A stretch of DNA of 64,000 nucleotides from Patescibacteria group bacterium (GTDB taxonomy: Bacteria > Patescibacteriota > Patescibacteriia > JAXHNJ01). Below the pieces are notes generated by a model. The model saw nothing but the letters and a program-made list of their open reading frames with translations, had not been told where the DNA came from and made no database searches. Positions 7,710-28,228 of this stretch are shown piece by piece. The position numbers and the translations under genes were made by a program. Numbering within the stretch: position 1 is the stretch's first letter; each line of letters opens with the position of its first letter. The stretch spans positions 77,824-141,823 of the forward strand of contig JBDRMK010000017.1 of assembly GCA_043812155.1 (NCBI GenBank), written 5' to 3'.

Positions 7710-8011
7710 GGCAAACTCATGATGATTTGCTGTATCCGCTCCGCCTCTTGCCTAACTATCTCCGTGTCGTATTCCCCGGCGTGCATGCTTGTCCCCGAAT
7801 AAGAGGGCCTCTTGGCGTCAAAATGCAAATTCAAGATCAGCTCTTCGCGGCTGTCCTTATTAACATAAATGTGAAATTTGGGAAATTCGCTTCGACCGGC
7901 CCGGCGGGCAAAACCCGGCTCGCCTTTATTGTCGCCGGAATAATGATAGCCACATTTGCGCAAAAGCGTTAAAGTATTTTCGGAAAAATTTTTCGCGATT
8001 ATAAGCCTCAT
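7706..8011 (-). CDS. Hypothetical protein, 101 aa, translationally coupled to the RAYT gene.
   Basis: 4-bp ATGA overlap with the RAYT gene. No recognisable motif. Confidence 0.4.
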   Translation of the reverse strand: MRLIIAKNFSENTLTLLRKCGYHYSGDNKGEPGFARRAGRSEFPKFHIYVNKDSREELILNLHFDAKRPSYSGTSMHAGEYDTEIVRQEAERIQQIIMSLP

Positions 8012-8233: not shown

Positions 8234-9682
8234 TTACTCCATCACCAAACTTCCGTCATCATTAAGGTTCACCATCGCCCATTCAACCTGGCTGGTACCG
8301 ATATTATAATAGACCAAGCCAAGGTATGAATCCTGCTTTAAAGCGCGGAAAATATTTTCCAGTTGCCAGGCGACATAGGCCGATTGATCTCCTTCCGGCA
8401 GAATCCGGCTAAGCACGAATTTTAGGAATATTTTCAAGTATATGGAGTCTTCTTTGTTTTGGCGGAAATTATCGGCTAAAACCTTGGGATCAACGCCGGG
8501 CTTTTGTTTTATTAGAATTGGGAATATTTCTTTTTCAAAAATTTCCTGGACAAAAGGGTCTGAAATGATATTTTTCAATTCCCCTGTCCGGGCCAGAATA
8601 ATAAGGCAGGCGGCGGCGACATTCGGCTCTTTATCGCGGTAAGCGTCAAAAAAATAATTTTTCAGCTTTTCAAACTCGCCTTTTGAAGCGCTAACAATAT
8701 TACTTTCTTCGGCGCTAATTTGCTTTAAAAGAGGTTCGTTTTCCGCCGCTGTTTTATTAAGCTTTTCCCGAATAGAGTCCGTTTCCGAGAGTTTATCTTC
8801 TTTTACTCCTTCTTCTTCTTTAACGGTAGGCTTAGTAGATACGGGAGTAGGAGTAAAAGAAGATAATGATTCCTCTTTTTGGCCGCCGAGGTTAAGTGAG
8901 GCTAAAGCTTTTTCCCTAACGGCTATAATAGTATTAATTTTATTCTCGTCAAATTTCAACGGCTGGAAGACGCCGCCGATAATATTACCCTGATGTCCTT
9001 CATCGTCTATGGGAATAGCCTCCTCCAATCCTTCAAGCGTCAAAGAAGAAAGTTTTAATTTTTCATAAAATTTAATTACCTGCTCAACTTTCTTTTTGTC
9101 TTCCGGCGGCAGACTCTTAGTGTTCGTATCGGTAAAAAGATATTCCGTCACTTTGATCAAGGAAATAACTTCGTTGCCCAAAATTGACCGATAGGCAAGA
9201 ATCCAGTTACCGACCGTGGGGGGCAAAAGACGGCCATTGACTTCAATGTCTTTTTGGGTGAGTTTTTCGGCATTTCTCTCTAAAGCCTCTTTGACTCTTT
9301 TTTTAAATTCATCGCGTATATCCAATGGGAAAATAAACAATAGGCGGGCACGGAAACTATCTTCTAAATAATAATCAGACATGGAAAAAATCGCCGTCAG
9401 ATGCTTTCCAAACATTTCCACCACGTCATCTTCTTTTAGGAGACTTAAGGCGACCCAAGAAGCCCGGACGATCATTTCCCGCACTTTCTCGTAAATATCC
9501 GGGTAATCCAAGACAAACGACGGGTAATCTTTAAAAGCCTGGGTAAGATTGGCGGCAAACAGAAGCGCGTCTTCGGTCTGGCTAAAAGTAATAATCTCCT
9601 CAAGCTTCCGGGCAAGTTTCTGCGAGAAAGCTGGAACCGTTAGTTTTTCGACGATTAATTTGGTGTCCGCGTTGATAATCAT
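8234..9682 (-). CDS. Hypothetical protein, 482 aa, last gene of the giant-protein operon.
   Basis: 4-bp overlap with the upstream membrane-protein gene. No recognisable motif. Confidence 0.5.
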   Translation of the reverse strand: MIINADTKLIVEKLTVPAFSQKLARKLEEIITFSQTEDALLFAANLTQAFKDYPSFVLDYPDIYEKVREMIVRASWVALSLLKEDDVVEMFGKHLTAIFSMSDYYLEDSFRARLLFIFPLDIRDEFKKRVKEALERNAEKLTQKDIEVNGRLLPPTVGNWILAYRSILGNEVISLIKVTEYLFTDTNTKSLPPEDKKKVEQVIKFYEKLKLSSLTLEGLEEAIPIDDEGHQGNIIGGVFQPLKFDENKINTIIAVREKALASLNLGGQKEESLSSFTPTPVSTKPTVKEEEGVKEDKLSETDSIREKLNKTAAENEPLLKQISAEESNIVSASKGEFEKLKNYFFDAYRDKEPNVAAACLIILARTGELKNIISDPFVQEIFEKEIFPILIKQKPGVDPKVLADNFRQNKEDSIYLKIFLKFVLSRILPEGDQSAYVAWQLENIFRALKQDSYLGLVYYNIGTSQVEWAMVNLNDDGSLVME

Positions 9683-12600: not shown

Positions 12601-12843
12601 AAAATCGTTGTATGAGGCGACCGCCACCAGCATCTGGATGACCGCCACCAGAAGTTTGGCAAACAAAACCAGAATGGCGTACAAAAGCCAGCCGATCGCT
12701 TTGCCGAACAGCTCGGAAATATCTATCAGGGCGTGCGCGCTCTGCGGCCAAAAGAGACCGGCCGCCACCACCACCGTAAGAAGAAGGGCGGTCGGCAGGA
12801 TTATTTTCGCTTTTTTTGTTTTAGGAAAAATCATGTTGATCAC
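9679..12843 (-). CDS. Large polytopic membrane protein with a long charged coiled-coil C-terminal half; VirB6/TrbL-like by topology and context.
   Basis: At least seven hydrophobic helices in the first ~300 aa, then a Gly-rich and Lys/Glu-rich coiled-coil region. 4-bp overlaps with both neighbouring genes. Confidence 0.5.
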   Translation of the reverse strand: MINMIFPKTKKAKIILPTALLLTVVVAAGLFWPQSAHALIDISELFGKAIGWLLYAILVLFAKLLVAVIQMLVAVASYNDFTNATAVVKGWVITRDVCNMFFIGILLMMAFGTILKWETYRYNKMLGRLILMAFLINFSKFICGFFIDIFQVIMLTFVNAFSGVAAGTFANALGIKEMLQITLAGDQTYEFKDIIGSLLLALLLVTIALIVMIAITLVLLMRIIWLWVLIVLSPVAFLLKTWPGGGEKFASRWWGDFGKNLTGGPMLAFFLWLALTIMTTRGADQSLAQKELNVSPDAMSIEQPAVIESGSPQPGSATANKFYTTISEVSSSDRLLSYIISISLLIGALMMGQQMGVAGGSAISWAQNKTGGLLRKAATLGAAGLAGGAIGLGIASRIKPIRSLLGYGESRLHERTGIGLSPKRIWKGIQEAREKKTRDREIVGQGRAGQMLQKGGVLGTIGGMLGAPRDSAEAFLGWRGVFNRLPRSLMGGDTRVKGIQAEIDKENGKVEEIEKKGGFYTHDEHKKMQDEKKDKEGDMKALDEFINNKSNTLDPNSMSQELKKGFSAALMENIRRLPEMIKSWRDEAKTKDKPEEKSKLNERAMEAEKLHAELSKKYAPQIKISEDIDKEKQAIAEAIKMGGTDGNDRQKRAREKMTQLQGDLANSLTAPITLDPKWNFTEDWRGDMAEEHKKMQDEVKELDVKLATNPVSPEDKKSHEEEMKKIRDNISRLEDKKVGAMGPQAFYSLRARRLLEREEMNKLDTTNEDELIYMFKDALKNKDRIRANGVLMQSARVGHLNEILNATQYKEDRSVTAEEAAKGWEAKQKGLYFDSNQQGLTDFMKQIVMKQLGSPTQEALALQNDLSNMAENIDHWTFGQSVGVKNGRYRARDPHEQEARNMIEMAKRDPETIIRRSNRLGYGGERIDPKTGKRFHIVGGMGLALLMNNWQGILNNFPRNRYNKSAAQHLSSDANTIILKQLALTLDNNMKNAKKYKDLEKYGLLTEQQAFLKFIEELKLYAKRNADEIQEEAKELSDVIGSTKELYPDKFHNT

Positions 12844-15800
12844 TTAAGCTCAACGATTAATTGACCGCAAGGCCGGCCGTTGTCCATGCCGCCTGAGCAG
12901 ACTCCGTCGGAACAACTGGCGCTTACTGCGACCCCGCCGGCACTATTATATATCGGCCGGCAGGTATCCACCGGAGCCCAATTTTGGATTAAATTGTTTG
13001 CGCAAGTGAAGGCATTATCAATTCCATCATAAATTAAAGGGCAGGTCCCACCTATACAATTGAGATTGCCGGCCGGATTGCACCAGCCGCCCTCATTTGA
13101 GCCCGCCCCTTCCAAATAGGCCGGGTTTTTATTGCCGTTATGGCAGACAGAATCATACATCGTGCCCCGCTTCGGATTAGCCGAACACCAGCCCCAGTTA
13201 TCTTCCAGGAGAATGTGGATATTATAGGTACAGCCTTCGCTATTATGGCAATTGGTACCGTTATAAGTATGGGTGAATATGTGGGGATTGTTGGGATCGT
13301 CTTTGGATTTATAGCCGGCCGCCGGCGAATCTCTGGCTCCGTCGCCCCAGTCGATCCAAATGGTCCTTAAAGGCTGCTGCTCGGTGTCCACCCGGCTGTT
13401 AAAAGACAGTCTGACCTTACCGCCGTCCCGGCCCAGTCTGACCGTAGTGGAAGAACCGTCGCCTAATTTAATATTCTTGACTACCGGCGCGTAGGCGCAA
13501 AAAGTATTTTCGTTAAGAGGATCGTAAGCCGGCCGGACAGAGCTTGGACAGACGGTCACCGGCGGACCCCAAACCGGCACGAAACGCTCCTGAAGTTCAG
13601 CATTACTCCCAGAAACTAATTGATATGTATTTACGAATGGCCCGCTGGTTTGCCATTCATAAATGCCGTAACTGCGGGTAAATAAAGCCCGGATGTTTAA
13701 TTCGGCAAAAAGTTCAGCTGGCTCATTTGTCCAAACATGATAGGCATCCACTGCCTCGCAGGAGGCTTTGGTAATACGAAGCAAATCCTTGCCATGAAGC
13801 CGGTCAAAGCAATAGTATCTTTTCCTGTTGTTCCAAACATAACCGGCTCCTTCGCAGGCGGCTTGAGACGTAAGAGCGGTCTCATCACCAAGAGTAGTCG
13901 GATTTAAACACCACCAGATAGGCAGAGTAGTATTAAGATATGGCCACATATTAATAGTTTGGGAGCCGCGATAACTGCCAGCGCCGCCGGCGCAAGGCCC
14001 GAAATCAACCGGCGGCGAGGTATTCTGAACACAATCTGAATCCATGACGCAAGAAACCGCTGCCCCGGCAGGATTTTTTCGGGCGCAGCTGCCTACTCCT
14101 ATGCAGACACCCTGGGCCACAGTGGTATCGGGATATTGGCCGAGACAATCTATGTTATTAAGGCAAGCCACGCCGTCTTTATTGCCGCCGCCCCAGCAGA
14201 TCCGCTTGGAGCAATCGCCGACGCAGGCGTAAGACTTGCCGGCCCGCACCTGAAAAGGAGACTCCGGAAAATTATAAGTATCCGCTTCTTCCGCTGACAA
14301 AGTCGGCCAGACGGCCGGATCGCCGCCTTCAGTCACCGCGCCGCCATATGGGGTAAAATCCGTGGTCAGGGAATAATTCAATTGCGGCACTTTATAACCG
14401 CTGGAATTTATTTTTCCGGCCCAGGCCGCGTTCTCGCCCCCTTCAGTCACCACTTCAACCAATTTCGTGCAAAATTCCTTAGGATAAAAGGTTAAACGGG
14501 AAATATAGAAAACGGCGTTACCTCCCAATAAATCATTATCATCTTTCATTATCATAACCGCCTTATCAAAGCCGCCGATACTATTAAATTGTAATTGGAT
14601 GCCCCCGGCAAAATTAAAAGAATTTGGACAACAAATGCCGTTAATGCCTCGCCCGCAACTGTTTGCCAGAGAATTAGGATCAGCCCAATCCTGGCTAAGC
14701 AACAACTGCTTGTTTTCCGCGCTGCATGTTCCTTCACTTACCCAGCCAGACCAATTATTGGCCGCGTTGAATTCAAAAGCGCCGTTTGCATTGGAAGAAT
14801 GATCAAAAGTATAAGACGCTGTGACTTTAATAGTGTTATCCTTCAACAAATACTTGCTATAATCTTTGCCCGGCGTAGACGCGGTATAATAACGTAAGTG
14901 ACCGCATTGGGCCGGACTACCGTCGCCGTAGATAAAATATTTTATCATGTGTGAACCATCATGGACTCCATAACAAAAGGCCGAACCATTTAAATCGCAA
15001 TTTTCATGACACTCTTCATTAGAATTGTCAGATGCGCAATAATAATTGCCGCCAGACCAAGATTGCCACACTGTGCCATTGGCTGGAATATCCTGACAAT
15101 AGACCTGCGGCTTTTGCGCCCCTAAAACTCCTAAAGATTCAGCGCAGTAATACAAGGGTGTGCGGCCGGAATAGCCCGCGGTTTCTTCCGCGCCGAATAG
15201 ATTGGATTCGCCGTAAAGGATATCCACCGGCCACCAGGAGAGGCAGAGGCTTTCGTTATCAGGATCGCGCTGCAGGCAATAGCCGCGCCAGCCCCGCTGG
15301 TAAATGCCGTTGCTGTCGTAATATTCGCAGGAAGGCGCGTCCTCCTGAGGGTAAAGCCGGCAGCTGCGATTCAGGAAAACTCCGGCTCCCACCTGCAGGA
15401 CCGGCTCAATTTTTATTTCATCCACGTAAAAAGGCTGGGCGCTGCCTTCAACCGCATAAATATCCAGATAAGTGTAGGCGCCGCCGACGCCAGGCGCTGC
15501 CGGAGTGGTAATATACTGCCAGCCGCTGGTCAAAGTATAAGTGCCCAAAACGCTTACTTTCGGGTTATTGCCGCCCGAATTTAAAGAGAATCTCACTTTC
15601 TGCGGGTCGGAATTTTCGGATTTTATCTTCAGGTTAACGGCATATTTAGAAGAAACGCTGGTGTCGCCGGAAGCTTGCACTCTGACGCCCTGATTTAAGC
15701 TGTCCATATCGCCTATCTTTAAGACGTAATTGCTTTTTTTATCCTTAGCGGCCGGATCCTCAACGATCTCGATAGTGGTAGGATTGGTCGCCACATTAGG

Positions 15801-17423
15801 ATATTTAGTGAAATTAGTCCATTTTTTTATATCATAGTTGTAACTCGTATCCTCAAAATCATAATTTTTAATCCTTACTTTTTCGCCTACTTCTGTCATG
15901 GCCGACCAGGGATAATAGCCCCTGACCAAGGGACTGCCGGCCTGATACTGCCAGTCAAGACCGGCGATAACCGAACCGGAAAGCCATTTTAACTGGTTGA
16001 TCTCATCCGGGGTGCGGTAGGTCATTTCCTCCTGGGGCAGATCAACATAGCTTGAGCATTGGTTTGATTTGTTCAATGAAGTGCAGGCGGTCAAATTCAA
16101 GCAAAGCTCTTCCGTTTGATTGGTTTTTGGATCTTTTTGTTCGATACCCGTGTTGCAGGTCAGCCACTTGGCGCATTCCCGGTCTTTTTTCACTTTTAAA
16201 ATGACGTTGGCGTCGCAGCGCGGATAAGTGCCGTAGCAGCCGGCCAGGGCCGGACTATTAAAAAGACCGTCGTCCTCGCACCGCGCCTGGCCGGAGCAAG
16301 TGCCGGGCTGGCAATCGCTATCCACGGCGCAGGCCTGGCCGTCGTTCGGTCCGCCGACGCAAACCGGGCAATCAGCGTCAGTCACGCAAGAAACAGCCGA
16401 ATTGCTGGCGCAGCTCCGGTAGCAATCAACGCGGTTGCACTGGTAAGGATCGCCGGTAAGACCCGGGTCCTGGGAACAGACTCCGCCCGGCTGGCAGGTC
16501 TGGCCGGAAGCGCAGATGAAACCGCAGTGCTCACAGTTGGAAACCAAGGTGGCTGTGCCCACGTCGCAATACAATCCGGTTGGCGAGCATTCGCCGATGG
16601 GGATATTGCCGTCGCACTGGCCGGTGGTAAAGACCCGGTCGCCGCCCGAAGAAGTGACAAAAGAAAATTCGCCGCTTTGAGAGGAATTGCCGGCTTCGTC
16701 AAAAGCCTGCACCCGGTAAAAATAAGTGGCGCCAGGCACCAAAGCCAAGGCCGTGGCCGGAGGCAAATGCAAAGTATGGACCACGATATAAGGGCCGGCG
16801 TTGTCATTGGCCCGGTTTTCCAGAGGCAAATAAGCGTCAAAGTTCGGCGAGGAAGTGGCGCCGTAGGCGATGGCCACATGGGCTTCTTCGCTGGTATAAA
16901 TTTCGACATCGGCATCGGTGTCATTAGCTCCCACCCGGATAAATGTAATAAAGGGAGCGTCTTTGTCCGCGCTGCCGCCCGGAGTGACAAAAGGCCGGTC
17001 GACGCTTGTTTTTTCTTCGCCTTTATCCGTTTTGGAAACGACCTGATAATGATAAGTGGTATTGGCTTTCAAGCCGCCGATGGAAACGCGGTGAGTTTTT
17101 ACATAATCCGCCTGATGGCAGGTATCGCAGGTGAAATCATTATAATTAGTGTCGGTTCCTATTCTCACCGTAGAATCCGCTAAAAGATTGGTGTCCCAAA
17201 CAATGGTCACGGAAGTTGAGGTCAAAGAGCTTAGATGAATATTGGTAATATAAAGAGAGGTGGTCTGGGCGCGGGCTGACGGAATGGGAAAGACCATAGC
17301 GCTCTTAAGCTGGGTAAAAGAAAAATTTACAGACCAGGCGGAAAAGACCAAGGCAAAAACAAAACTCAAGGCGAAAAACGCCATTTTCGGCCGGAGTTTA
17401 AATTTTTCTTTCATTTTTATCAT
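12840..17423 (-). CDS. Giant secreted cysteine-rich protein, 1527 aa (signal peptide, FN3/PAP-N-like and PKD-like domains, EGF-like Cys repeats).
   Basis: N-terminal hydrophobic signal. Motifs VTIVWDTN...TTYHYQV (FN3-like) and WIDWGDGARDS...FTHTYN (PKD-like). Many CxxC-rich stretches. Confidence 0.7.
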   Translation of the reverse strand: MIKMKEKFKLRPKMAFFALSFVFALVFSAWSVNFSFTQLKSAMVFPIPSARAQTTSLYITNIHLSSLTSTSVTIVWDTNLLADSTVRIGTDTNYNDFTCDTCHQADYVKTHRVSIGGLKANTTYHYQVVSKTDKGEEKTSVDRPFVTPGGSADKDAPFITFIRVGANDTDADVEIYTSEEAHVAIAYGATSSPNFDAYLPLENRANDNAGPYIVVHTLHLPPATALALVPGATYFYRVQAFDEAGNSSQSGEFSFVTSSGGDRVFTTGQCDGNIPIGECSPTGLYCDVGTATLVSNCEHCGFICASGQTCQPGGVCSQDPGLTGDPYQCNRVDCYRSCASNSAVSCVTDADCPVCVGGPNDGQACAVDSDCQPGTCSGQARCEDDGLFNSPALAGCYGTYPRCDANVILKVKKDRECAKWLTCNTGIEQKDPKTNQTEELCLNLTACTSLNKSNQCSSYVDLPQEEMTYRTPDEINQLKWLSGSVIAGLDWQYQAGSPLVRGYYPWSAMTEVGEKVRIKNYDFEDTSYNYDIKKWTNFTKYPNVATNPTTIEIVEDPAAKDKKSNYVLKIGDMDSLNQGVRVQASGDTSVSSKYAVNLKIKSENSDPQKVRFSLNSGGNNPKVSVLGTYTLTSGWQYITTPAAPGVGGAYTYLDIYAVEGSAQPFYVDEIKIEPVLQVGAGVFLNRSCRLYPQEDAPSCEYYDSNGIYQRGWRGYCLQRDPDNESLCLSWWPVDILYGESNLFGAEETAGYSGRTPLYYCAESLGVLGAQKPQVYCQDIPANGTVWQSWSGGNYYCASDNSNEECHENCDLNGSAFCYGVHDGSHMIKYFIYGDGSPAQCGHLRYYTASTPGKDYSKYLLKDNTIKVTASYTFDHSSNANGAFEFNAANNWSGWVSEGTCSAENKQLLLSQDWADPNSLANSCGRGINGICCPNSFNFAGGIQLQFNSIGGFDKAVMIMKDDNDLLGGNAVFYISRLTFYPKEFCTKLVEVVTEGGENAAWAGKINSSGYKVPQLNYSLTTDFTPYGGAVTEGGDPAVWPTLSAEEADTYNFPESPFQVRAGKSYACVGDCSKRICWGGGNKDGVACLNNIDCLGQYPDTTVAQGVCIGVGSCARKNPAGAAVSCVMDSDCVQNTSPPVDFGPCAGGAGSYRGSQTINMWPYLNTTLPIWWCLNPTTLGDETALTSQAACEGAGYVWNNRKRYYCFDRLHGKDLLRITKASCEAVDAYHVWTNEPAELFAELNIRALFTRSYGIYEWQTSGPFVNTYQLVSGSNAELQERFVPVWGPPVTVCPSSVRPAYDPLNENTFCAYAPVVKNIKLGDGSSTTVRLGRDGGKVRLSFNSRVDTEQQPLRTIWIDWGDGARDSPAAGYKSKDDPNNPHIFTHTYNGTNCHNSEGCTYNIHILLEDNWGWCSANPKRGTMYDSVCHNGNKNPAYLEGAGSNEGGWCNPAGNLNCIGGTCPLIYDGIDNAFTCANNLIQNWAPVDTCRPIYNSAGGVAVSASCSDGVCSGGMDNGRPCGQLIVELK

Positions 17424-17436
17424 AATTATTTGATCG

Positions 17437-20400
17437 TTAATGGGCGCAATTAATTTTGGCGTCGCAGGAAGTTATCCGGTAATGGTAGCGGCTGTTGGCT
17501 TTCAAATTTATCAGCTCAAGGCTGTGACTGGTGGTTAAACTCTCATCCTTGACGCAATCTCCCGGCCTGAGACATTCATCATCATCACCGTATAAATGAT
17601 CATAATCGCCTCCTATTTCTATGACGTAGTCCACCCGCGAGGTGGCCGGTTCATCCGTTTCCCAGGTAATGACCGCTTTGCGCTTGCCCGTGATTTCATC
17701 AAGACTGACGTCAACGTTGATCATCGTCAGCACGGGCGGCGCTACGTCATTTATAATAACGAAATTAACCAAATCGCTATCGGTGGAATTACCCGCGCTG
17801 TCATAGGCCGTGGCCTGCAAAGTGTGAGAACCCGGGCTCCGCGTGGTGGTATCAAATAAATAATCGTATGGAAAGCCTGTCCAAGTGACAAAAGGAGAAG
17901 CCTCGCTGTCTAAAATCAGTTCCACTCTGGTGACCCCGGCATTATCAGACGCTTCCACAGTAATATTGTAGCTCGCGGAAATTTCTTCGCCTTCGGTCGG
18001 AGTCAGGATCCTGACCACCGGCGCTTCCAGATCCGGTTCAGCTAAAGTTGTGAAAGAAATGGAAGAAGGACAGCCGGTGGAGGCAAAATTAGACTCTTCC
18101 GCCGTATCCCAAACCCCGATATTCAAATAATAGGTGGTGGAGGGCAGAAGATTTCCAATAAAGACCTCAAACGAAGTATTGATATCCGCCACGCCGATAA
18201 ATGAATGCAAAAGTGTGCAATCAGCATTCAGAAGGACGGCGATATCCGCCTGAGCGGGTTCTGAAGTATCAAAGGTCAAAATAGCGGAGTTATATGAGGG
18301 GTCAATATTGATATTGGAAATGACCGGCGGCTCTTGATCCGCTTCGCACAGGCCCGTATCTTCCGCGCACACAGGCGTGGCCGGCGGACAGGTATATTCG
18401 CATTGCCGGCAATCATTGACTAGTTGCAAGGCCGCATTGCAGTACTGTTTGGTCGTTTCATTACAGCCGCCTCTGGCCGTACCGTCGGCGCACTGTTCCG
18501 CGCAAGCATGGGTGCCGGTAGCATCGCAATAAGGTTCGGTTGACGTCGTCGAACAATCAAATGAACATTCCTGGCAATTATGGCCTACGGTCGGCGATAA
18601 TTGTCCGGGAGTGCAAAAACTGTCGCCTGATAACCGGCAGCAATACTGCGAAGCGGTATTGCATTGGCCAAAATTTGTCCCGTCCGGACAAGCCGGCAAA
18701 CATTGGCCGGTCGCGCTGCAGAAAGGAGTGGCCGCCGGACAGATATAGCCGCACTGCAAACAATTATTCACGAAGTTATTGGCGCTCTGGCAATACTGGG
18801 CGCCTGAACAGCTGCCGACTGGAGTGGTTATGTTGCAGCCTGGCTCACAAAGACCGTTAGAGGTATTACAGAAAATATTGCTGGCCGGACAGGTGTAGCC
18901 GCACTGCAAACAATTATTCACAAAGTTATTGGCGCTCTGGCAATATTGGGTACCCGAACAGCTGCCGACTGGAGTGGTTGAATTGCAGCCCGGCAAACAT
19001 TGGCCGGTCGCGCTGCAGAAAGGGGTGGCGGCCGGACAGATATAGCCGCACTGCAAACAATTGTTCACAAAATTATTGGCGCTCTGGCAATACTGAGTGC
19101 CGAAACAGCTGCCGACTGGGGTGGTTGAATTGCAGCCTTCTTCACACTGGCCGGTTGAGCTGCAGTAGGGAGTGGCAACCGGACAGGTGTAGCCGCATTT
19201 TGTTTGATTTAAAGAACAATTATTGGAAAGCTGTAAACTAATAGGATCGCAGTATAGCAAACCGGCATTACAACTATCTGGACTGGTGCCATCTAAACAT
19301 TTTTCCTCGCAGGCCTGAAGAGTAGTATTGCAGTATGGAGTGGCGGCTGGACAGGTATAGCCGCAGTGCACGCAATTCTTTGTTCCGTCCAAAGGCATTA
19401 AGGTCGTGCCCTGGCAATACTGCTGGCTTAAATTGCAAGAGCCGTCATCCGTGCCATCCGGACAGGCAGCCAGGGTGGTAAAATTTTTATCAGTTGAACA
19501 AATCTCTTGCGCTAAATTATTTTGAGAACAAACAATATAATAATACGAAGTTAATGGCAATAAATTATCAAGAATTAAAGCATGGTCAGTCGTCTGCGTA
19601 AAATCACTTTTATATGAATCGTAGGAAATACCATAATAAACTAAGGTGCCGGCATCGCCGACCGCCCAGAAAGCATTTGCTCCGGCTAAATATACGGCAT
19701 GCAAGGTTCGATTATTGCCACTAATCGAGGTATAATTTTGCCAGTTGGTACCAGCGTTATTGGTGCAGAAAAAACCGCCTGAACCCCCGACCACACAAGC
19801 ATTGTTTATTGAAAGAGCATAAATATTATTAAAAGATAAGCCAGAACCCGTTGTTTGAGAAATCCAAGTGCTGCCACCATTACTAGTCCGGAGAATTAAA
19901 TCGTAAATGCCGGCAATCCAGGCATTATTCGAATCTATCACTGCGATTTTACGAAGAGCATTGGTCGTACCGCTCGTCTGCCTATTCCAAGTGGCACCGC
20001 CGTTAGTCGTCTTAATTATTGTGCCGCTAGTCCCAACCGCCCAACCGTTATTCGCGTCATATACCTCAACTCCAATCAGCATGTTCGAAACTCCGCTAGT
20101 CTCTTTAACCCAGGTTAAACCGCCATCAACTGTATGCAAAACCGTTCCTAAATCACCGACCGCCCAAGCTTGCTGTCCGTCAATAGCGGCAATACTGAGA
20201 AGAGCCACGTTTACACCACTCACCTGCTTACTCCAGGTGGCACCGCCGTTAGTTGTTTTAATAATTGTGCCATTGGCTCCAACCGCCCAAGCAGTGTTTG
20301 CGTCAATAGCTTCCACGTCTAGCAAATTTACCGTAACGCCGCTTGTCTGCGCGGTCCAGAAATTAGAAAAATTAAGATTAGTGTGTAAAATAATTCCAGA

Positions 20401-20700
20401 CTGACCAACTATCCAACCGCTTTTACCGATCATATCCAAGCCAATCAACATATTAGTGCCAGCCACATTTTCTACTGACCAAGCCGGCCCAGCCGAAACA
20501 ACGTAATAAGCCTGGGAATCCCCGTTTTCATCGGTCGGCCAGGAAATTGTGGCGGTGGTCGCTTTTAGATTGCTTACGGCCGGATCACTGGTAATACTGA
20601 TCGCGTTCGCTTGCCGTCCAAGAAAGAAACCAAAGGCGAATATAATTATCAAAGAAACGACTTTTTTTATGGAAAAAATATTTTTAAGCGAGTAGTTCAT
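17437..20700 (-). CDS. Secreted 1087-aa protein with a BNR/Ycf48-like beta-propeller, five tandem Cys-rich ~48-aa repeats and C-terminal Ig-like domains.
   Basis: Signal peptide. Repeated TTNGGATW / TVDGGLTW Asp-box-like motifs. Repeats CLQCGYxCPAATPFCSATGQCLPGCNSTTPVGSCSGTQYCQSANNFVNN. The stop of the upstream gene abuts this start codon. Confidence 0.7.
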   Translation of the reverse strand: MNYSLKNIFSIKKVVSLIIIFAFGFFLGRQANAISITSDPAVSNLKATTATISWPTDENGDSQAYYVVSAGPAWSVENVAGTNMLIGLDMIGKSGWIVGQSGIILHTNLNFSNFWTAQTSGVTVNLLDVEAIDANTAWAVGANGTIIKTTNGGATWSKQVSGVNVALLSIAAIDGQQAWAVGDLGTVLHTVDGGLTWVKETSGVSNMLIGVEVYDANNGWAVGTSGTIIKTTNGGATWNRQTSGTTNALRKIAVIDSNNAWIAGIYDLILRTSNGGSTWISQTTGSGLSFNNIYALSINNACVVGGSGGFFCTNNAGTNWQNYTSISGNNRTLHAVYLAGANAFWAVGDAGTLVYYGISYDSYKSDFTQTTDHALILDNLLPLTSYYYIVCSQNNLAQEICSTDKNFTTLAACPDGTDDGSCNLSQQYCQGTTLMPLDGTKNCVHCGYTCPAATPYCNTTLQACEEKCLDGTSPDSCNAGLLYCDPISLQLSNNCSLNQTKCGYTCPVATPYCSSTGQCEEGCNSTTPVGSCFGTQYCQSANNFVNNCLQCGYICPAATPFCSATGQCLPGCNSTTPVGSCSGTQYCQSANNFVNNCLQCGYTCPASNIFCNTSNGLCEPGCNITTPVGSCSGAQYCQSANNFVNNCLQCGYICPAATPFCSATGQCLPACPDGTNFGQCNTASQYCCRLSGDSFCTPGQLSPTVGHNCQECSFDCSTTSTEPYCDATGTHACAEQCADGTARGGCNETTKQYCNAALQLVNDCRQCEYTCPPATPVCAEDTGLCEADQEPPVISNINIDPSYNSAILTFDTSEPAQADIAVLLNADCTLLHSFIGVADINTSFEVFIGNLLPSTTYYLNIGVWDTAEESNFASTGCPSSISFTTLAEPDLEAPVVRILTPTEGEEISASYNITVEASDNAGVTRVELILDSEASPFVTWTGFPYDYLFDTTTRSPGSHTLQATAYDSAGNSTDSDLVNFVIINDVAPPVLTMINVDVSLDEITGKRKAVITWETDEPATSRVDYVIEIGGDYDHLYGDDDECLRPGDCVKDESLTTSHSLELINLKANSRYHYRITSCDAKINCAH
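18700..19250. repeat. About 3.3 near-identical tandem copies of a 144-147-bp coding repeat inside the 1087-aa gene.
   Basis: Unit ccggacag(a/g)t(a/g)tagccgcactgcaaacaatt...ctgccgactgg(a/g)gtggtt recurs starting near 18737, 18880 and 19027. Confidence 0.7.
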
Positions 20701-23700
20701 TTATTTTCCTCTCATATTCAAGACCGGATTAGAGGTGTCGTTAAAAGGCATGCATCCTTCGGCCTGATTAACCTGGTTGGCGCATTCTTCTTTATTTTCT
20801 TCCGCCATATCTTTTATATAATAATATGAGCGGCAACCCGGCAATCCAGTGGCGGAACAATTACCGCCAGGGCAATCAAGGTCGTTATTGCACATTTGCC
20901 CGTTTCGGTCCCCTCCTTGGCAAACAGTCGGTTGACAACTTTCGTCCACGGGCACGGTGACTCCGTTCTCTTCTACTAGAGCACAACCCGTGCGGCAAGA
21001 AGCGGGGTCAGAAGGATCACGGTATTCATTGCAGCCGCTTTGTTCTTCCGGGCACAACCCTGCCCAGTAGTCGCAAGCGGTCGTGCCGGTGCATTGGGCA
21101 TTGCTGGTGCAGGCAGCGCCCACATTCATTACGCCGCCCCCGCAAAGCGGAGCGACGCAGACACCGCCCGGACAACCGGCATTATCGCTACAAGTTGTGC
21201 CATCGCGCTCTCCGCCTAAACAATAGCGACAATCCGAATTATCAACGCAAGCCACATCGGCGAAAGCCCCGGAGGCGCAGACTTTCACGCAGGCCCGGCC
21301 GGTCGGTATTTTTTCCGGTGGCGGAGTAACATACGGGCATAAAAGATTCGTCCCTAATTTAAACCATTGGTATTCGCCTCCGCCGCTTCCCAGTTTATAC
21401 TCGCAGGTCTTGGAGCGGGGATCCTTGAACCAACTGGTTCCGCCGCCATTAGTATAAGCATATTCCGCGCAGCCATCTTCGGCGGCCAGACAAACAATAG
21501 AAACATCATTTCCCTTTTCATCAGTGTATTGATACTTTTCCGGATCATTAAGCAGGAATTTTGTCTCCCAGGAAACAGGCTCGTCAATCTGATTTAAGGC
21601 GGGAAGACCGAAACTCTGGCAGCCTTTAGCGCTGGCCGGACAAGTTTTGGCCTTGTCATAAACAACCGTTTCAAATGAATCAGCGGGAATAGTAATACCT
21701 CGAACGACCGTGGCAAAAGGATTATGATAATTTTGGGTATTGATCATGGCGGCGCAGCCGATGAATTGAATAGGGCAGAGATGATCGAAAGATTTAATAT
21801 AATGAATGGCGTTTTTAGTATCCTTATAAGCCTGGCAGTTAAGATCACCCGCACCGCAGCTGGTAAAGGTATTTTTGATGATATAAGAGACATCCGCCAC
21901 TTCCTCCAATAAAACATTATCAATATAGAAGGGTCCGTTAAGCTCAAGGGCGATCTGGTCAAAATCCATCATGTCCCGGTCAAAAACCAGCGGCCCCAGA
22001 ACATATTGGTTCCAATCCTGGGTGACACTGACCGGTCCGCTGATGAAGGAAATTATATTATCAGGCACGCCGTTATTATTTTGGATGACCGCGTTATTAA
22101 TCGTCGTGGTGCCGGCCCCGTCCGGTTTCAGCCAGAAAGAAAGCTGGTAATATTGGCCGCTTACGAGTTTTTTCTCTTTCAAGACAGCAGGATCAACCAC
22201 GCTGGTGGCCGTGCTATTACCTGCTACATGCAAAGAATGCTCGGTCGCCCGCAAAGATTCATTGCTGATGCTTCCCGCCTGCCATTCAGTCGCGCCTAAA
22301 GTCGTATCTTCAAAAGTGGCCTGGAAGACTTTGCGGCTGACACTGCCGGTATTGCCTTTATACTCGCGGCAGCCGGCGGCTTTGGCCGGGCAGCTGATGC
22401 TTTCCGATGGGATCAAATAAAATATCTTTGTCTTACCGGCGATAGAATCAATGGTATTGCGGTGCGGATAACATTCAGCCGAAGCTTTTATCACCCGCGA
22501 GCGCAATATATAGTAAACATTGCCCGCGGTATCATAATATTCCGTGCAATCGGGATTAATCTCCATCTCGGCCGCCGTGCAAGCAGCCACCTCTTTTATA
22601 TCAGAACAGGTTGAGCCGGGGCACTGACCATCATTGATACAGACATCGCCAATATTGTCCCCGCCGGCGCAAACGGTCAAATTATCGATGCACACCGGAT
22701 CAGCGCCCACATTCGGCACGGATAAATTAGTGCAGGGAGCATTGGAGGTATTGCTCTTTTTAAGACGATAAGCGGTCAATTGGTAGCCGCGCGTGTCGCT
22801 GCCTTCCCAAGTATAGAAAGTATTGATTTCTGCCGCCTCGGGCTTGACGCACTGGCGGATTTTCGTGTAATAAGCCTTGCCTTCTCCGCCTTTGGCGACA
22901 ATATCCAAATTCGTGTATTCTTCGCAGCCCACGGAAGCGACTTCACAACGCTGGCCGCTGCCGCCAATAAAGTAAACCGGGTCGCGCTCCGGCCGTTCCG
23001 GAATGCTTAAGATCGGCTCTTCCCGGAAAGGCTGGCAACCGACCTTATCCGCCGAACATAAATTGCTGGGGTAAACAACGCCCGGAATAGCCGCTCCCTT
23101 GCCTTTAACCGGCGTGTATTTTTCGCAGCCGACGTCTTTTTCTTCACAGGCGATGCGATTGCTGTTCAAATAAATCTGATTGGTCTTGCCATAGTCTTTA
23201 TAAGCGGAAAGGGTATTTTCCTCCAACTGCATGGCATCAACATAAACATCAACCGCCACTCCGGCGACGGGATCGCTGGCTCTGACGATCAAAATCAGAC
23301 TGTTGGGGGAAACAGGATTTCCGCCTCCGTCTAAAGTAATGTGGTCAACCGTAAAAGTCGTGCTGAATCTTTGCCATTCAGTGGTCAGCGAGATAGGCAT
23401 AGAAACCAGGTAATCTGGGAAAAAACCAACTCCCCCATTTTTCACCACCAGGCGGCTAGTCGTCGTCGCCGCCGTCGCCTTGGCATAAATAGAATAAGTG
23501 AAAGTCCGGTTCAAAACCGGGTAGCCGGTGTCAATTTGATCCGTCGCTAAATATTGGCCGGAATCGCCCGGGCCGCAAGAAGGCAATTCTCTTAATTTCA
23601 AAGCGATCGAACCGGTGTAAGCGTCGGAAACCGCTTCGGCGGTCGCCCCGCAAGTGTTTTCCACAATAATGTCGGTAAAATTATTGCTGACATTATTATC

Positions 23701-26454
23701 AACTTCACCGGTGTAATATTCAAAACTGGAATTCGGGACTAAATTGGTATGGTTGCCCGTCGGGATAAACTCCTGGCAGCCCACGTTGTTTTCCGCGCAT
23801 TCTTTTACATCGCGATCAAAGTGAATTTTATTGCCCGTTGTCTTGGTGCAGGTCCACTGGTTTGTCGTTGTATCAAAATCCGGTTCCTGGCAATACCACT
23901 GACAGCCGGCGTTAGCCGCCGTGCAGCCGTTGATATCCAAGGTTTTTTTAAGATAAGAAACAACCGAGCCATCCGACGCCTTATAACTCTGGCAGGAAGC
24001 GTACTGCCGGTCGCAAGCGTCGCCGTTAAATTTCCAGACGGGTCTTTCTTCAAAACAATAGCCGTATTTAAGGCATTTGCCCTGGCTGTCCTGCTGCAGA
24101 CAAGATTGCTCATTGACGCAAACGTCGCTGTTACGGCTTATCTCCCAGTGGCCGATATCCGGGGTAATATTAGTCGTCGGATCATATTTACAATCCGTTT
24201 TATTATCTCCATTAGTATCTTCATCGCAAATATATTGTTTTAGCTGGATCTCCTCGCCTACGCCTCTTTTTTGGCAATATGTTTCCGGCAATTTTAACAC
24301 CCAGTTAGGATCGATCAAACCGCAGAAAGGCGAGGCATTGGCTTCGGCCTGACAATAAGGTTCCGCCTCACCGACACAGTGCCCGACGATCTGATCGGGC
24401 GTTTCCCGGCAGACAAAACCTTCAGGGCAGACCGGCGTAGTTAAATCACACGCGTCATAACAAGCCTTGCGTCCGCCGTCCGCCTGGATCGTGCAAATTT
24501 GACCGGCGTCGCAATCACTATTATCATCGCAAGAGGGGTACAAAGTAGTATCATAACAATCGCTGTCTCCGCCGCAGGAAATAGATTTATCATTACTGCA
24601 ATATTTTTTGCCGCCGCTTTCGCAGCGTTCCGCTTCCTCAATTAATTTTTGCAGGGTAATATTTTGGGGATGATCCTTAATCCATTTGGCGGCCAGCTCC
24701 CAGCCCACGGGCACGACGCGGTATGTGCGTAAATAGACAATCGAGCGGTAAGAGATGCCTGAATTTAGGCTTGGCTCCCGGCCTTCGGCGTCAAAGCCGA
24801 AAGTCCCGCCGATCAAACCCTTTTCAATCGCTTGTTTTACCGACAGCTCCTGATCAATCGCCGTCTGAAAACCCGAATCAATAATCCCCCTGGCGGTTAA
24901 ATCACCCGCGGAAACCGGGTCCTGGCCGGGACTGCCCAAGGTAAAATTAAGTTTGGAAATCGAGGCGAACTGAAGCTTGGCCGCGGCCACGCCTGACGGC
25001 TGAACACTGCCAAAAACCAGCTGGCTTAATTTTGAGCCCCCCGAAGGGCCTTTGCAGCCGGCCGCCGAAGGATTAAGGGCGCACTTGCCGCCGAAAAATC
25101 TCTGGGTCAACCGGTCAATTAAAGTATTGGTAAATATCGTGATAAGATCCGCTTTAAGCGAACCGGTCCGCACTTCTTCCGGTCTCGTGGCCGCGCTTTG
25201 CGTATCCTCTAAGCGGTTTTGCACTGATTCTCTAGGGGCAATAATAGAAACCCCCAATTTATCGGTCAGGGAACTGACCGAATCTGACGACGCAATTACC
25301 TGCGCCGCGGAATAATCTTTCTGCGTTTTTATTTCTTCCAGATTCAAAACTTTCAGAACCTTGCCGATATCATTCTGCTCCGATTCCAGGTAAAGATTGA
25401 TCGTGCCGCCCACTAATTTTTGGTTGGCAAGAACGCCATTTTTCGCGTCCGTAACTTTGGCGAAATTTTTAAAAATTTCATTCGCGGTGCACCGGGAGGT
25501 TCTTATTCCGCCTTTGCAGTTTTTTAAGCAGATCTGCAGTTCGCTTTGCAAACCTTTCATTTCGTTGATATAAAAACGCTGGACAGTGGCAATACAAAGT
25601 TGAAGATTTTCCCGGGTCAAAGGTATCTTTGTCCATTTATCCCTTTCTTCATCGGTATAATATCCTGTTGGCTGACAGTAAACACCGGGCGGAGTAGAAA
25701 GACCAGGACCTTGTTCGCAAGCAATCGGGCAGGGAAAATATCCATCACTATGCCTATCAATATTATCGAGAACTCTAAGCGAACCCTCATTATCATTATC
25801 AAGTGCGGTTAAATAAGGAATACTGCTGTAGGGGATAATCATGCTTGCCTTTCCAGTTTTCGGATCAATCGCCATTAAATTATACCGCAGGTCGTCTACC
25901 GCGGGCTTATTTACAATTTCGCATTTCCGGTTGCAATAGTCCAATGGATTGTCACTTATCAAATCGCCGATAACCATAGTTAAGGCCATTTGCGTGGGCA
26001 ATTGCCCGGCGCAAACATCAATGCCAAAAACCTCTTCTCCCATGGAATAAAGGAAATCGCCGGCTGAGGCCTGGCTCAATTTCGTCCAATAATGGGGGTC
26101 AGTCATAAAAAGCGGCTTCTGGCCGGTGCCGGCCGAAGCGATCCAGACCGCCGTATCCTGAACCACCCGGCCCAAAAAAGTGCGGAGGGAATTTTTAAAA
26201 GCGACATCAGTCGCCACTGTAAAAGCTTCTTTAGCTTTTTCTTTAACTTTATCAAAAGCTTTCTGGGCTTGAGCCCAGGCTTTTTGCCAGAAACCTTGGC
26301 CTTCAAGAACAGGGGCGGAAACCACGCCGCCAACCGCGTTCGCCGGCCTAGGTTCAAAAGCCAATAAAAAAAGAAAAACAAACGAAATAAAAAACAGGAG
26401 CAAAAAACTACTGGCTAATATTTTTTTATTTATACTCTTTTTTTCGACGGGCAT
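20701..26454 (-). CDS. Giant 1917-aa cysteine-rich surface/secreted protein with two CBM4/9-like beta-sandwich domains and an N-terminal membrane anchor.
   Basis: N-terminal TM (LLLFFISFVFLFLLAF). Dense Cys content. Two segments resemble carbohydrate-binding-module folds (around TEWQRFSTTFTV and NGPFYIDNVLLEE). Confidence 0.7.
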   Translation of the reverse strand: MPVEKKSINKKILASSFLLLFFISFVFLFLLAFEPRPANAVGGVVSAPVLEGQGFWQKAWAQAQKAFDKVKEKAKEAFTVATDVAFKNSLRTFLGRVVQDTAVWIASAGTGQKPLFMTDPHYWTKLSQASAGDFLYSMGEEVFGIDVCAGQLPTQMALTMVIGDLISDNPLDYCNRKCEIVNKPAVDDLRYNLMAIDPKTGKASMIIPYSSIPYLTALDNDNEGSLRVLDNIDRHSDGYFPCPIACEQGPGLSTPPGVYCQPTGYYTDEERDKWTKIPLTRENLQLCIATVQRFYINEMKGLQSELQICLKNCKGGIRTSRCTANEIFKNFAKVTDAKNGVLANQKLVGGTINLYLESEQNDIGKVLKVLNLEEIKTQKDYSAAQVIASSDSVSSLTDKLGVSIIAPRESVQNRLEDTQSAATRPEEVRTGSLKADLITIFTNTLIDRLTQRFFGGKCALNPSAAGCKGPSGGSKLSQLVFGSVQPSGVAAAKLQFASISKLNFTLGSPGQDPVSAGDLTARGIIDSGFQTAIDQELSVKQAIEKGLIGGTFGFDAEGREPSLNSGISYRSIVYLRTYRVVPVGWELAAKWIKDHPQNITLQKLIEEAERCESGGKKYCSNDKSISCGGDSDCYDTTLYPSCDDNSDCDAGQICTIQADGGRKACYDACDLTTPVCPEGFVCRETPDQIVGHCVGEAEPYCQAEANASPFCGLIDPNWVLKLPETYCQKRGVGEEIQLKQYICDEDTNGDNKTDCKYDPTTNITPDIGHWEISRNSDVCVNEQSCLQQDSQGKCLKYGYCFEERPVWKFNGDACDRQYASCQSYKASDGSVVSYLKKTLDINGCTAANAGCQWYCQEPDFDTTTNQWTCTKTTGNKIHFDRDVKECAENNVGCQEFIPTGNHTNLVPNSSFEYYTGEVDNNVSNNFTDIIVENTCGATAEAVSDAYTGSIALKLRELPSCGPGDSGQYLATDQIDTGYPVLNRTFTYSIYAKATAATTTSRLVVKNGGVGFFPDYLVSMPISLTTEWQRFSTTFTVDHITLDGGGNPVSPNSLILIVRASDPVAGVAVDVYVDAMQLEENTLSAYKDYGKTNQIYLNSNRIACEEKDVGCEKYTPVKGKGAAIPGVVYPSNLCSADKVGCQPFREEPILSIPERPERDPVYFIGGSGQRCEVASVGCEEYTNLDIVAKGGEGKAYYTKIRQCVKPEAAEINTFYTWEGSDTRGYQLTAYRLKKSNTSNAPCTNLSVPNVGADPVCIDNLTVCAGGDNIGDVCINDGQCPGSTCSDIKEVAACTAAEMEINPDCTEYYDTAGNVYYILRSRVIKASAECYPHRNTIDSIAGKTKIFYLIPSESISCPAKAAGCREYKGNTGSVSRKVFQATFEDTTLGATEWQAGSISNESLRATEHSLHVAGNSTATSVVDPAVLKEKKLVSGQYYQLSFWLKPDGAGTTTINNAVIQNNNGVPDNIISFISGPVSVTQDWNQYVLGPLVFDRDMMDFDQIALELNGPFYIDNVLLEEVADVSYIIKNTFTSCGAGDLNCQAYKDTKNAIHYIKSFDHLCPIQFIGCAAMINTQNYHNPFATVVRGITIPADSFETVVYDKAKTCPASAKGCQSFGLPALNQIDEPVSWETKFLLNDPEKYQYTDEKGNDVSIVCLAAEDGCAEYAYTNGGGTSWFKDPRSKTCEYKLGSGGGEYQWFKLGTNLLCPYVTPPPEKIPTGRACVKVCASGAFADVACVDNSDCRYCLGGERDGTTCSDNAGCPGGVCVAPLCGGGVMNVGAACTSNAQCTGTTACDYWAGLCPEEQSGCNEYRDPSDPASCRTGCALVEENGVTVPVDESCQPTVCQGGDRNGQMCNNDLDCPGGNCSATGLPGCRSYYYIKDMAEENKEECANQVNQAEGCMPFNDTSNPVLNMRGK

Positions 26455-26477: not shown

Positions 26478-27335
26478 TTATTGGCTGGTATTCGTATTGG
26501 CAGTGCCCTGATCTTCCAAGGCTTTTAGAAAAATTGCCTGCAAAGTTTCGTCATCCAATCCGCTTAATTCCGACTCCGCCACGCCGCTTTCGATTAAAAG
26601 CTGCCTGATCTCGGCGGGCGTTAAAGTCCTTAAAATACTGGTCGCCTCTTCATCAGAAATATTGGCATTCGGAGAAATATTGATATCGGCCGCGGGACTT
26701 ATATTGCTATTGGCGTTTGTCTGCGTATCCTGGACGGTCTGGTTATATACTTCCATTAATTCTTCATCGCTCATGCCGTCCAAGACATTCTGGGGCACGC
26801 CCGCGTTTTTCAAGGTTTCCCGCAAAGTGTCAGCGGTCGCGTTGCCGGAAAGGAGGGTGGAATTTGTCGCCGAAACGCTGGAATTGTCCGTAGTACTAGC
26901 ATTGGCGAGGCTCGTATTGGTATCCGCGCCATAGCTCACGCAGGCCTGGCCTTCCGGACAATTGGGATCAGTGCCGCTGTCAATTTCCTGCTTGTCGGTG
27001 AGACCGTCAGAGTCAGAATCGGCTAAATAAGGGCTGGTGCGATGAAAATAAAGTTCATCATAATCGGAAAGCCCGTCCGTGTCCGTGTCTTTGTTTTTTA
27101 AAGCGTCAATCTGGTCAATCTGCACCTGAGTAAGAAAAGAAGAAGTGTTGCTTGGCACCGCTTCCGGCATAAAAGGACTTTTTACGTATTGGGAAAGCCT
27201 TAGGAAACCAAAAAATAAAGCGACGATCCCGATCAAACCGACAAAAGCGTAGATCTTTCTTTCATTCTTTATTTCGGGAGGTGAATTTTTTTTATCTTGA
27301 AAATTCTCGGAATTTCCAGGTTCAAATTCAGACAT
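26478..27335 (-). CDS. Membrane-anchored protein with thrombospondin-type-3-like calcium-binding Asp repeats.
   Basis: Single TM (FVGLIGIVALFFGFL). DTDTDGLSDYDE and DSDSDGLTDKQEIDSGTDPNCPEGQAC motifs. Asn/Thr/Ser-rich tail. Confidence 0.55.
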   Translation of the reverse strand: MSEFEPGNSENFQDKKNSPPEIKNERKIYAFVGLIGIVALFFGFLRLSQYVKSPFMPEAVPSNTSSFLTQVQIDQIDALKNKDTDTDGLSDYDELYFHRTSPYLADSDSDGLTDKQEIDSGTDPNCPEGQACVSYGADTNTSLANASTTDNSSVSATNSTLLSGNATADTLRETLKNAGVPQNVLDGMSDEELMEVYNQTVQDTQTNANSNISPAADINISPNANISDEEATSILRTLTPAEIRQLLIESGVAESELSGLDDETLQAIFLKALEDQGTANTNTSQ

Positions 27336-28221: not shown

Positions 28222-28228
28222 GAAAAAA

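Follow-up and report, generated by a model that had tools for sequence, protein, structure and literature searches.

A predicted surface module of giant cysteine-rich proteins in a chromosomal type IV secretion locus of Patescibacteria

Why would a small Patescibacteria group bacterium encode three giant cysteine-rich proteins beside a secretion system? The stretch of DNA analysed here, 64,000 nucleotides of contig JBDRMK010000017.1 (assembly GCA_043812155.1) and referred to below as the window, contains five tightly packed open reading frames (ORFs) on the minus strand, here called A to E. A, B and C encode the giants, and D encodes a polytopic membrane protein. An initial annotation of this DNA described the five genes as an operon dedicated to cell-surface adhesion or host interaction, possibly coupled to a nearby VirB4 module, and all five ORFs were recovered in full (Table 1). 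Judged by sequence and gene order, A–E are not a free-standing operon but the upstream module of a larger type IV secretion system (T4SS) locus, with the order U, cysteine-rich giant(s), D, E, (s), F, PrgI/VirB3, TrsD, VirB4. A–E belong to this locus, and the giants may serve as adhesins or in contact with a host. We consider it probable that A–E and the upstream gene U form the envelope or surface module of a chromosomal Patescibacteria T4SS, in which the giants are the glycan-binding host-contact part.

Few systems are proven essential for epibiotic life in the Patescibacteria, and the T4SS is among them; that of the Saccharibacterium Southlakia epibionticum is essential for its epibiotic growth (PMC10633639, Wang et al. 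2023). The Patescibacteria T4SS has its origin in the machinery for conjugation in monoderms, and its role has been called completely unknown (PMC11665869). A phylum-wide survey reported VirB4, TrsD, VirB3, VirB6 and VirB2-like pilins and detected no PrgB-like adhesins (PMC12102498, Quinonero-Coronel et al. 2025). The text of that survey does not contain the terms 'giant', 'large protein' or 'surface protein', and uses 'cysteine' only in describing VirB1. Full-text literature searches for giant or cysteine-rich proteins together with the Patescibacteria T4SS returned nothing relevant. Within the library searched, the conserved module of U, giant, VirB6 and E appears to be new to the literature.

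The genes of the block follow one another closely. A directly adjoins B, 13 nt separate B from C, and C/D and D/E each overlap by 4 bp, which suggests translational coupling at the latter two junctions. Within the block, nothing resembling a terminator is conspicuous. The gene U, 23 nt upstream of A, is the opening gene of the conserved module, and a promoter-like site ca. 35 nt upstream of its start codon is the probable start of the transcription unit. U has a single N-terminal anchor (transmembrane segment at ca. residues 26–52), and its predicted extracellular part contains two DxDxDG motifs of the calcium-binding TSP3 type and a tail rich in serine, threonine and asparagine.

Proteins A, B and C have 95 (5.0%), 68 (6.3%) and 71 (4.6%) cysteines, respectively. 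Cysteine richness is peculiar to this block, since all other proteins in the window have 0–3.4%, and an unrelated secreted giant with FG-GAP domains has 0.7%. The signal peptides or anchors that the initial annotation had attributed to the giants were found on all three, each being a hydrophobic signal sequence with an AxA end – ANA in A (residues 1–40), ANA in B and ARA in C – and D has one ending in AHA.

The guanine-cytosine (GC) content of A–D is 0.48–0.505, compared to 0.40–0.41 for leuS, a difference that had been pointed out from the start. The difference itself is real, but it does not distinguish the giants or mark them as foreign. GC content is just as high in purL (0.555), the FG-GAP gene (0.51), pnp (0.49) and virB4 (0.48), and is therefore uninformative on the origin of the giants, and their excess lies largely at codon position 2, where it reflects amino acid composition. 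Horizontal acquisition inferred from high GC was rejected on these two grounds.

The locus was compared with its relatives, starting from D. Relatives of D numbered at least 568 in a scan of species-representative genomes. Eighty of these loci were kept with 10-kb flanks, and in the total of 86 loci ORFs were called and searched with the window proteins. Locus homologues were found by single-pass phmmer, so that the synteny counts are conservative. The named genomes with relatives of D are Falkow-, Kerfeld-, Komeili-, Veblen-, Uhr- and Buchananbacteria.

A giant of the A/C family was found upstream of D in 49 of the 61 loci that had at least 6 kb of upstream sequence, and in 29 of these it was within 1.5 kb. 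Of 72 loci, 67 have a gene of the E or F family as the next one downstream of D, and VirB4 is no more than 10 kb from D in 45 of 51. In 20 loci, and also in L087–L089, the gene just before the giant is a homologue of U. In seven loci (L001–L007) the order is U, giant(s), D, an E-like gene, a gene of ca. 100 amino acids (s), an F-like gene, PrgI, TrsD, VirB4, small proteins and T4SS_pilin; five D homologues with this shared order have 43%, 39%, 49%, 39% and 30% identity to D in the best local alignment. In L005, on a contig of 1.03 Mb, the locus runs from end to end without interruption.

The linkage was also found in the reverse direction. Three distant homologues of A (24–32% identity) all have U upstream and D and E downstream; F and PrgI follow in two of the three loci, and VirB4 in one. 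A still wider order – an M23/LysM peptidase, leuS, (MFS, Sua5), ksgA, U and the giant – is kept in L087 and L089, where A is ca. 27–32% identical. This corresponds to 26478–36840 in the window, and indicates that the T4SS locus has a stable chromosomal address in this lineage. In L006, L012, L015, L017 and many other loci, the giant and D are separated by an extra gene, whose product of ca. 180–260 amino acids is rich in charged residues; the window has no such gene, C and D being overlapped there.

The coupling to VirB4 that had been offered as a possibility thus has strong support from a gene order conserved in about 90 related loci. The conserved unit is larger than the proposed five genes, extending from U to VirB4, and in most relatives A and C are one protein.

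Table 1. Positions of the genes and other features of the locus within the window.
Feature	Position	Strand	Basis
Promoter-like site, TTGACA-17 nt-TATAAT with extended -10 TG	27370–27398	minus	consensus scan only, 12/12 matches
U, 285-aa membrane protein	26478–27335	minus	Pfam TSP3_bac, 4.8e-6
A	20701–26454	minus	ORF, 1917 aa
First CBM4/9-like jelly roll of A (ca. residues 900–1090)	23185–23757	minus	model pLDDT ca. 75–93; Foldseek
Second CBM_4_9-like domain of A (residues 1376–1484)	22003–22329	minus	Pfam PF02018, 5.1e-5
B	17437–20700	minus	ORF, 1087 aa
Tandem DNA array in B, 147 nt x 3.4 copies, 78% matches	18693–19197	minus	encodes the cysteine-rich repeats of B most alike
C	12840–17423	minus	ORF, 1527 aa
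D	9679–12843	minus	ORF, 1054 aa
E	8234–9682	minus	ORF, 482 aa
s, 101-aa protein	7706–8011	minus	conserved after E in the clade of the window
Y1_Tnp/IS200-like gene	7014–7709	minus	locus interruption
NAD(P)HX dehydratase	6051–6848	minus	locus interruption
PPDK_N protein	5008–5994	minus	locus interruption
F	3319–5004	minus	561-aa ORF
PrgI-family (VirB3-like) small membrane protein	2861–3310	minus	Pfam PF12666, 1.2e-6
TrsD/TraC-like protein, homologous to the N-terminal part of VirB4	2174–2848	minus	NCBIfam TrsD, 1.2e-5; VirB4_plasma, 2e-9
VirB4 ATPase	184–2259	minus	Pfam P-loop_TraG, 7e-29; AAA_10; CagE_TrbE_VirB

The protein encoded by D consists of a signal peptide, ca. 7 hydrophobic helices within residues 40–385, and a 650-amino acid C-terminal domain that is hydrophilic and all-helical. 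An AlphaFold2 model built from 103 sequences has a mean predicted local distance difference test (pLDDT) score of 79. When this model was searched against the PDB with Foldseek, the top four matches were TrwI/VirB6 chains of the R388 T4SS (prob 0.85–0.96, E 0.24–0.36). D itself has no match in Pfam or NCBIfam, VirB6 models included, and a D-profile search of PDB sequences returned coiled-coil noise only. TrbL (PF04610) was matched in 8 of 26 aligned members of the D family, with a best E of 8.7e-7, and PF04610 or PF19590 is precomputed for several D homologues. D has 392 relatives, of which the named ones are almost all Patescibacteria. By its fold, D is a VirB6-type subunit of the 'extended VirB6' kind, a class defined in PMC12857230, and the VirB6-like polytopic protein of the initial annotation is upheld. 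The segment following the last hydrophobic helix has 13 lysines and arginines compared to 5 aspartates and glutamates, from which the positive-inside rule places the C-terminal tail of D probably in the cytoplasm. PrgI, TrsD and VirB4 are 4.7 kb downstream of D within the window. The deposited version of D (ABIH38_03180, from the metagenome-assembled genome of a Patescibacteria group bacterium) has 1051 amino acids, starts three codons later, is otherwise identical, and is annotated as hypothetical; an exact look-up with the 1054-amino acid form gave no entry.

The giant proteins belong to an extensive family. Of 1.84 billion cluster representatives (clusters at 50% identity), 1,228 are related to A at E≤1e-3, and 724 of them at the stricter E≤1e-30; most have 2,500–3,800 amino acids. 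Many cysteines are invariant in the family, and the AxA site is conserved. Named members are 'hypothetical' or are titled after carbohydrate-binding module (CBM) or dockerin domains, and the deposited A (ABIH38_03195, of identical sequence) is annotated as hypothetical. Most relatives have a single protein of 2,200–3,350 amino acids that aligns collinearly to A (ca. 1–1800) and then to C (ca. 350–1420), so that A matches the first two thirds of the single giant, and residues ca. 350–1420 of C match its last third. Because A and C are collinear parts of one protein in most loci, they are expected to act together. Separate genes for A and C with B between them were found only in close relatives of the window (L001–L005 and L007), where C has gained a signal peptide and a pair of FN3 domains of its own, and matches to the B family only in 8 of the 86 loci. 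By this comparison, the A/C split and the insertion of B are clade-specific, and B would be an accessory addition. A recent origin of A, B and C as paralogues of one another was also considered and rejected; the sole match between A and C is one cysteine motif of 45 amino acids.

After its signal peptide, A has a conserved, cysteine-poor N-terminal domain (ca. residues 60–600) that is mostly helical in the model, largely at low confidence. This is followed by cysteine-rich hairpin repeats and two CBM4/9-type jelly rolls (ca. 900–1090 and 1376–1484). The motif C-x6-C-x2-[YFWM] occurs 12 times in A, compared to 0.43 expected from shuffled sequences. The modelled region 900–1090 matched the CBM4-2 structure 2y64_A in the PDB (Foldseek E 1.7e-9, TMt 0.78), as well as CBM16 and CBM22. 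The second jelly roll scored 24.1 bits with PF02018, below the cutoff of 25.9 bits. The CBM4/9-like domains of the initial annotation therefore stand at the fold level, with Pfam support below cutoff. CBM_4_9 domains are precomputed in many A homologues, and dockerin and PA14 domains also occur among the homologues. A sequence search of A against the PDB gave no match.

B encodes, in order, an FN3 domain, a BNR/Ycf48-type beta-propeller (Pfam PSII_BNR, 8e-28), a second FN3 domain, cysteine repeats (ca. 405–790), a Big_7 domain and a third FN3 domain. The repeats are ca. 50 amino acids long with 8 cysteines each, and the three to four adjacent copies most similar to one another are encoded by a tandem DNA array. 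C has its own signal peptide followed by two FN3 domains (fn3/Pur_ac_phosph_N, also matched in B), and a scan of sub-segments found a weak CBM_4_9-like module at ca. 518–640 (9e-4, 20 bits). Only FN3 domains were matched when C was searched against PDB sequences. The FN3, Ig-like and propeller modules predicted earlier are thus all present. Two other predictions found no support: no EGF or PKD profile matched at E≤0.01 on the whole of A–C, or at E≤1 on ten sub-segments. A stretch resembling 'WGDG...HTY' near the C-terminus of C was sighted by eye only. By present profiles, the cysteine-rich parts of A–C are unclassified repeats.

A tandem array could suggest that such long ORFs are misassembled repeats or the product of chance. 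This is hardly credible here: the copies of the array are just 78% alike, orthologues built in the same way turn up across many independent assemblies and sequencing projects, and the A family has hundreds of cluster representatives at E≤1e-30, with invariant cysteines.

Signal peptides, invariant cysteines and the CBM, FN3, Ig and propeller domains together support an extracellular location for A–C. As very large secreted proteins with a secretion system beside them, in a bacterium that presumably lives as an obligate epibiont or parasite, the giants might also be secreted or contact-dependent effectors or toxins directed against the host. We regard this as very improbable. The Sec signal peptides favour export by Sec over export by the T4SS, and profile scans of A–C found no toxin, peptidase or nuclease domain. 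No variable C-terminal tip was seen, the C-terminal domain of C being among the conserved parts, and no immunity-like gene follows.

The carbohydrate-binding folds are open to a different explanation, in which the giants serve glycan scavenging or processing, or are S-layer or wall proteins, and merely neighbour the T4SS. The CBM4/9 domains fit such a function, as do the dockerin and PA14 domains of homologues and the B propeller, which has a weak match, far below cutoff, to the glycosylhydrolase family NF045728 (2e-8). The conserved order of leuS, ksgA, U and the giant means in addition that part of the synteny may be inherited gene order. However, profile scans found no catalytic glycoside-hydrolase or lyase domain in the 4,500 residues of A–C, the linkage to the secretion genes survives at 24–30% identity though other neighbours change, and the overlap with the VirB6-like gene indicates co-translation. 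Mere proximity thus seems a rather improbable account of the locus.

The giants could instead be structural parts of the conduit itself – a stalk, sheath or cap reaching across the wall and S-layer to the host, with passage along or through them, in the manner of VirB5, VirB2 and VirB9–10 or of DotA–IcmX. Their gene is strictly adjacent to the VirB6-like gene and overlaps it by 4 bp, and in R388 VirB6 forms the base of a stalk with VirB5. Patescibacteria have no recognisable VirB8, VirB9 or VirB10 (PMC12102498), helices make up the conserved, cysteine-poor domain at the N-terminus of A, and tubular structures are reported from the parasite-host interface of a cultivated relative (bioRxiv 10.64898/2026.06.21.733656). 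On the other hand, no structural similarity of A to a T4SS stalk or pilus subunit was found, the confident matches being to CBMs only. A modular make-up of CBM, FN3 and Ig domains that varies between lineages (dockerin, PA14, the insertion of B) is typical of adhesins and unlike conserved channel parts, and the VirB2-like pilins of relatives have separate genes. On balance, a conduit made of the giants is unlikely.

The reading of the giants as a glycan-binding host-contact part has its own difficulties. The model of A residues 1–1200 has a pLDDT of 61 overall, with the N-terminal 600 residues mostly below 50, and in the fold search of this model the CBM matches swamped any match to the confident domain at 520–720. 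No recognisable T4SS-interaction domain was found in A–C, which carry Sec signals. The CBM fold is known also from enzymes and phage tail proteins, and glycan binding is therefore no proof of host adhesion. Twelve of the 61 D loci (about a fifth) have no giant within 10 kb, and housekeeping genes often sit between the D–E and F–VirB4 modules, so that these two modules are physically separable. Informative names in the A family include Parcubacteria, Komeilibacteria and Magasanikbacteria and do not include Saccharibacteria, the group whose T4SS has been studied genetically. Lastly, the topology of D comes from the positive-inside rule alone. All of these points weigh against a host-contact function coupled to the T4SS, which we hold as probable.

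If the giants do form the host-contact part, the module could work as follows. D would be a VirB6-type channel or platform subunit with an extra helical C-terminal domain, and a cytoplasmic tail would allow it to contact E, F, TrsD and VirB4. Sec would export A, B and C, given their signal peptides with conserved AxA cleavage sites, and these would then be folded oxidatively into rigid, elongated, disulfide-cross-linked multidomain proteins bearing at least three CBM4/9-type jelly rolls along with a BNR propeller and modules of the FN3 and Ig types. Neither an LPXTG-like motif close to the C-terminus nor a hydrophobic segment at that end was found in A, B or C; with no sortase signal or C-terminal anchor, they would have to be retained by protein contacts. 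Candidate partners are U, the outer loops of D, or VirB2-like pili, which are encoded further downstream in relatives. The giants would bind polysaccharide of the host envelope and hold the T4SS channel or pilus against the host. Disulfide bonding, surface retention, binding to glycans or the host, and a role in secretion are what we infer for A–C from their sequences and setting.

How a tiny-genome monoderm would fold proteins with ca. 70–95 cysteines is a question in itself. In L089, a DsbA/thioredoxin-like gene (4258–5046, minus strand; PF13462, PF01323) is located ca. 5 kb from the giant, beside T4SS_pilin genes, and its product is a candidate oxidative folding factor for the cysteine-rich giants.

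Downstream of D, the locus continues with two gene families that appear to be specific to these lineages. E is soluble, with 1 cysteine and no known domain. F is likewise soluble and poor in cysteine, and is Patescibacteria-specific, and its gene is always directly upstream of PrgI/VirB3. The two proteins share an N-terminal domain of ca. 110–140 amino acids (hhalign 97%, E 4.7e-11), which identifies them at the profile level as distant paralogues. The C-terminal 110 or so amino acids of F are highly conserved, with the motifs GPIEEL, FRRLG and AWR, and have no known family. Pfam and NCBIfam gave nothing for E and F, and single scans of 33 E and 34 F homologues gave single-member noise only; a homologue search with E found 12 proteins, all unannotated. 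Many PrgF-like proteins have been reported near virB4 across Patescibacteria (PMC12102498). We infer that E and F are lineage-specific cytoplasmic partners of the system.

Three genes at 5008–7709, between s and F, interrupt the locus and are outside the T4SS system; in other lineages, the same place has other insertions (AdoHcy hydrolase, MetK and others). The Y1_Tnp gene overlaps s by 4 bp and occupies the same position in the T4SS locus of other lineages (L004, 15283–16611; L023), and in L004 it is fused to an NAD(P)HX dehydratase domain. It appears to be a resident gene, perhaps a domesticated one, and not an active insertion sequence.

In the core of the locus, the TrsD gene invited the suspicion of a frameshifted VirB4. 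This was rejected: the 224-amino acid TrsD is encoded separately (225–257 amino acids) in all relatives, and TrsD is known as a separate gene in Patescibacteria (PMC12102498). The true start of VirB4 is probably the ATG at 2166, giving ca. 660 amino acids as in relatives. In relatives, small proteins follow and PF18895 T4SS_pilin genes are found 2–3 genes past VirB4; here that part of the locus is beyond the left edge of the window, which cuts the DNA inside virB4 or just past it. Among the window ORFs that were scanned, none matched a relaxase or a family of the VirD4/TcpA type.

Some other features of the window are unconnected with the module. In leuS (31925–35369, minus strand), the reading frame changes near 34600–34640 and LeuRS continues in another frame, which may reflect recoding, a frameshift or a fault in the assembly. 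The 891-amino acid part carries in-frame NUDIX (122–245) and Ser_hydrolase/alpha-beta-hydrolase (300–475) domains between the editing domain and the remaining catalytic core, and the hydrolase insertion is conserved, since the leuS of L087 (1054 amino acids) carries the same one. The second secreted giant (39758–43810, minus strand; 1350 amino acids) has FG-GAP, CarboxypepD_reg and other beta-sandwich domains and is unrelated to A–C. A gene for a tyrosine recombinase/integrase of 245 amino acids (49582–50319, plus strand) is found in a stretch of low GC, together with several small ORFs without family matches.

An exported, conserved family of predicted glycan-binding proteins beside a VirB6 gene is a concrete candidate for host contact in a major group of uncultivated Patescibacteria. 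Annotation pipelines overlook the VirB6 homologue here and treat the giants as unrelated hypothetical proteins. As a tentative extension, which we would place somewhat below an even chance, the giant family and the TSP3 anchor may be the missing host-recognition part of the T4SS in lineages like Falkow-, Kerfeld-, Komeili- and Uhrbacteria, with CBM-based host selection coupled to a VirB6 channel. On that reading the giants would help to set host range, and could be used to trace which hosts uncultivated bacteria of the Candidate Phyla Radiation live on. Are attachment and T4SS function combined in one module, and do the CBM modules follow the identity of the host?

Several known systems resemble parts of this locus. 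The Patescibacteria-type T4SS shares with it a chromosomal VirB4, a separate TrsD, PrgI/VirB3, a VirB6 homologue, pilins (in relatives, in our case), and the lack of a nearby relaxase or type IV coupling protein. The published accounts of that system consulted here, however, list no adhesin and make no mention of a cysteine-rich giant, a TSP3 anchor or the E and F families, and the experimental system is Saccharibacterial, whereas the layout of the window comes from Falkow-, Kerfeld-, Komeili- and Uhrbacteria-like genomes. D differs from the VirB6/TrbL family by a cleavable-looking signal peptide and by the lack of a profile match, and its 650-amino acid helical tail has no detectable relative outside the D family. 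The closest solved structures to D are those of the R388 VirB5–VirB6 stalk and Legionella DotA–IcmX, in which a VirB6-type subunit has an extracytoplasmic partner (VirB5 or IcmX) that the same system encodes. A, B and C have no detectable similarity to either partner, and a corresponding partnership with D would be by analogy only.

Cellulosomal exoproteins with CBM, dockerin and FN3 domains have CBM4/9 jelly rolls and FN3/Ig spacers in common with the giants, as well as the dockerin of homologues and the DxDxDG motifs of U. A–C differ from them in having no catalytic or cohesin domains and far more cysteine, and in being linked to a T4SS instead of to glycoside hydrolases. In the enterococcal plasmid pCF10, the T4SS operon encodes PrgA, PrgB and PrgC, large exported surface proteins thought to make and stabilise cell-cell contact. 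A–C are likewise large, exported, and encoded beside a monoderm-type T4SS; unlike the Prg proteins, to which they have no sequence similarity, they lack an LPXTG motif and a PrgB-type adhesin domain, are 2–3 times larger and extremely cysteine-rich, and bear CBMs. By analogy, the giants may be the functional counterparts, though not the homologues, of enterococcal PrgA/B/C or of the VirB5 tip adhesin.

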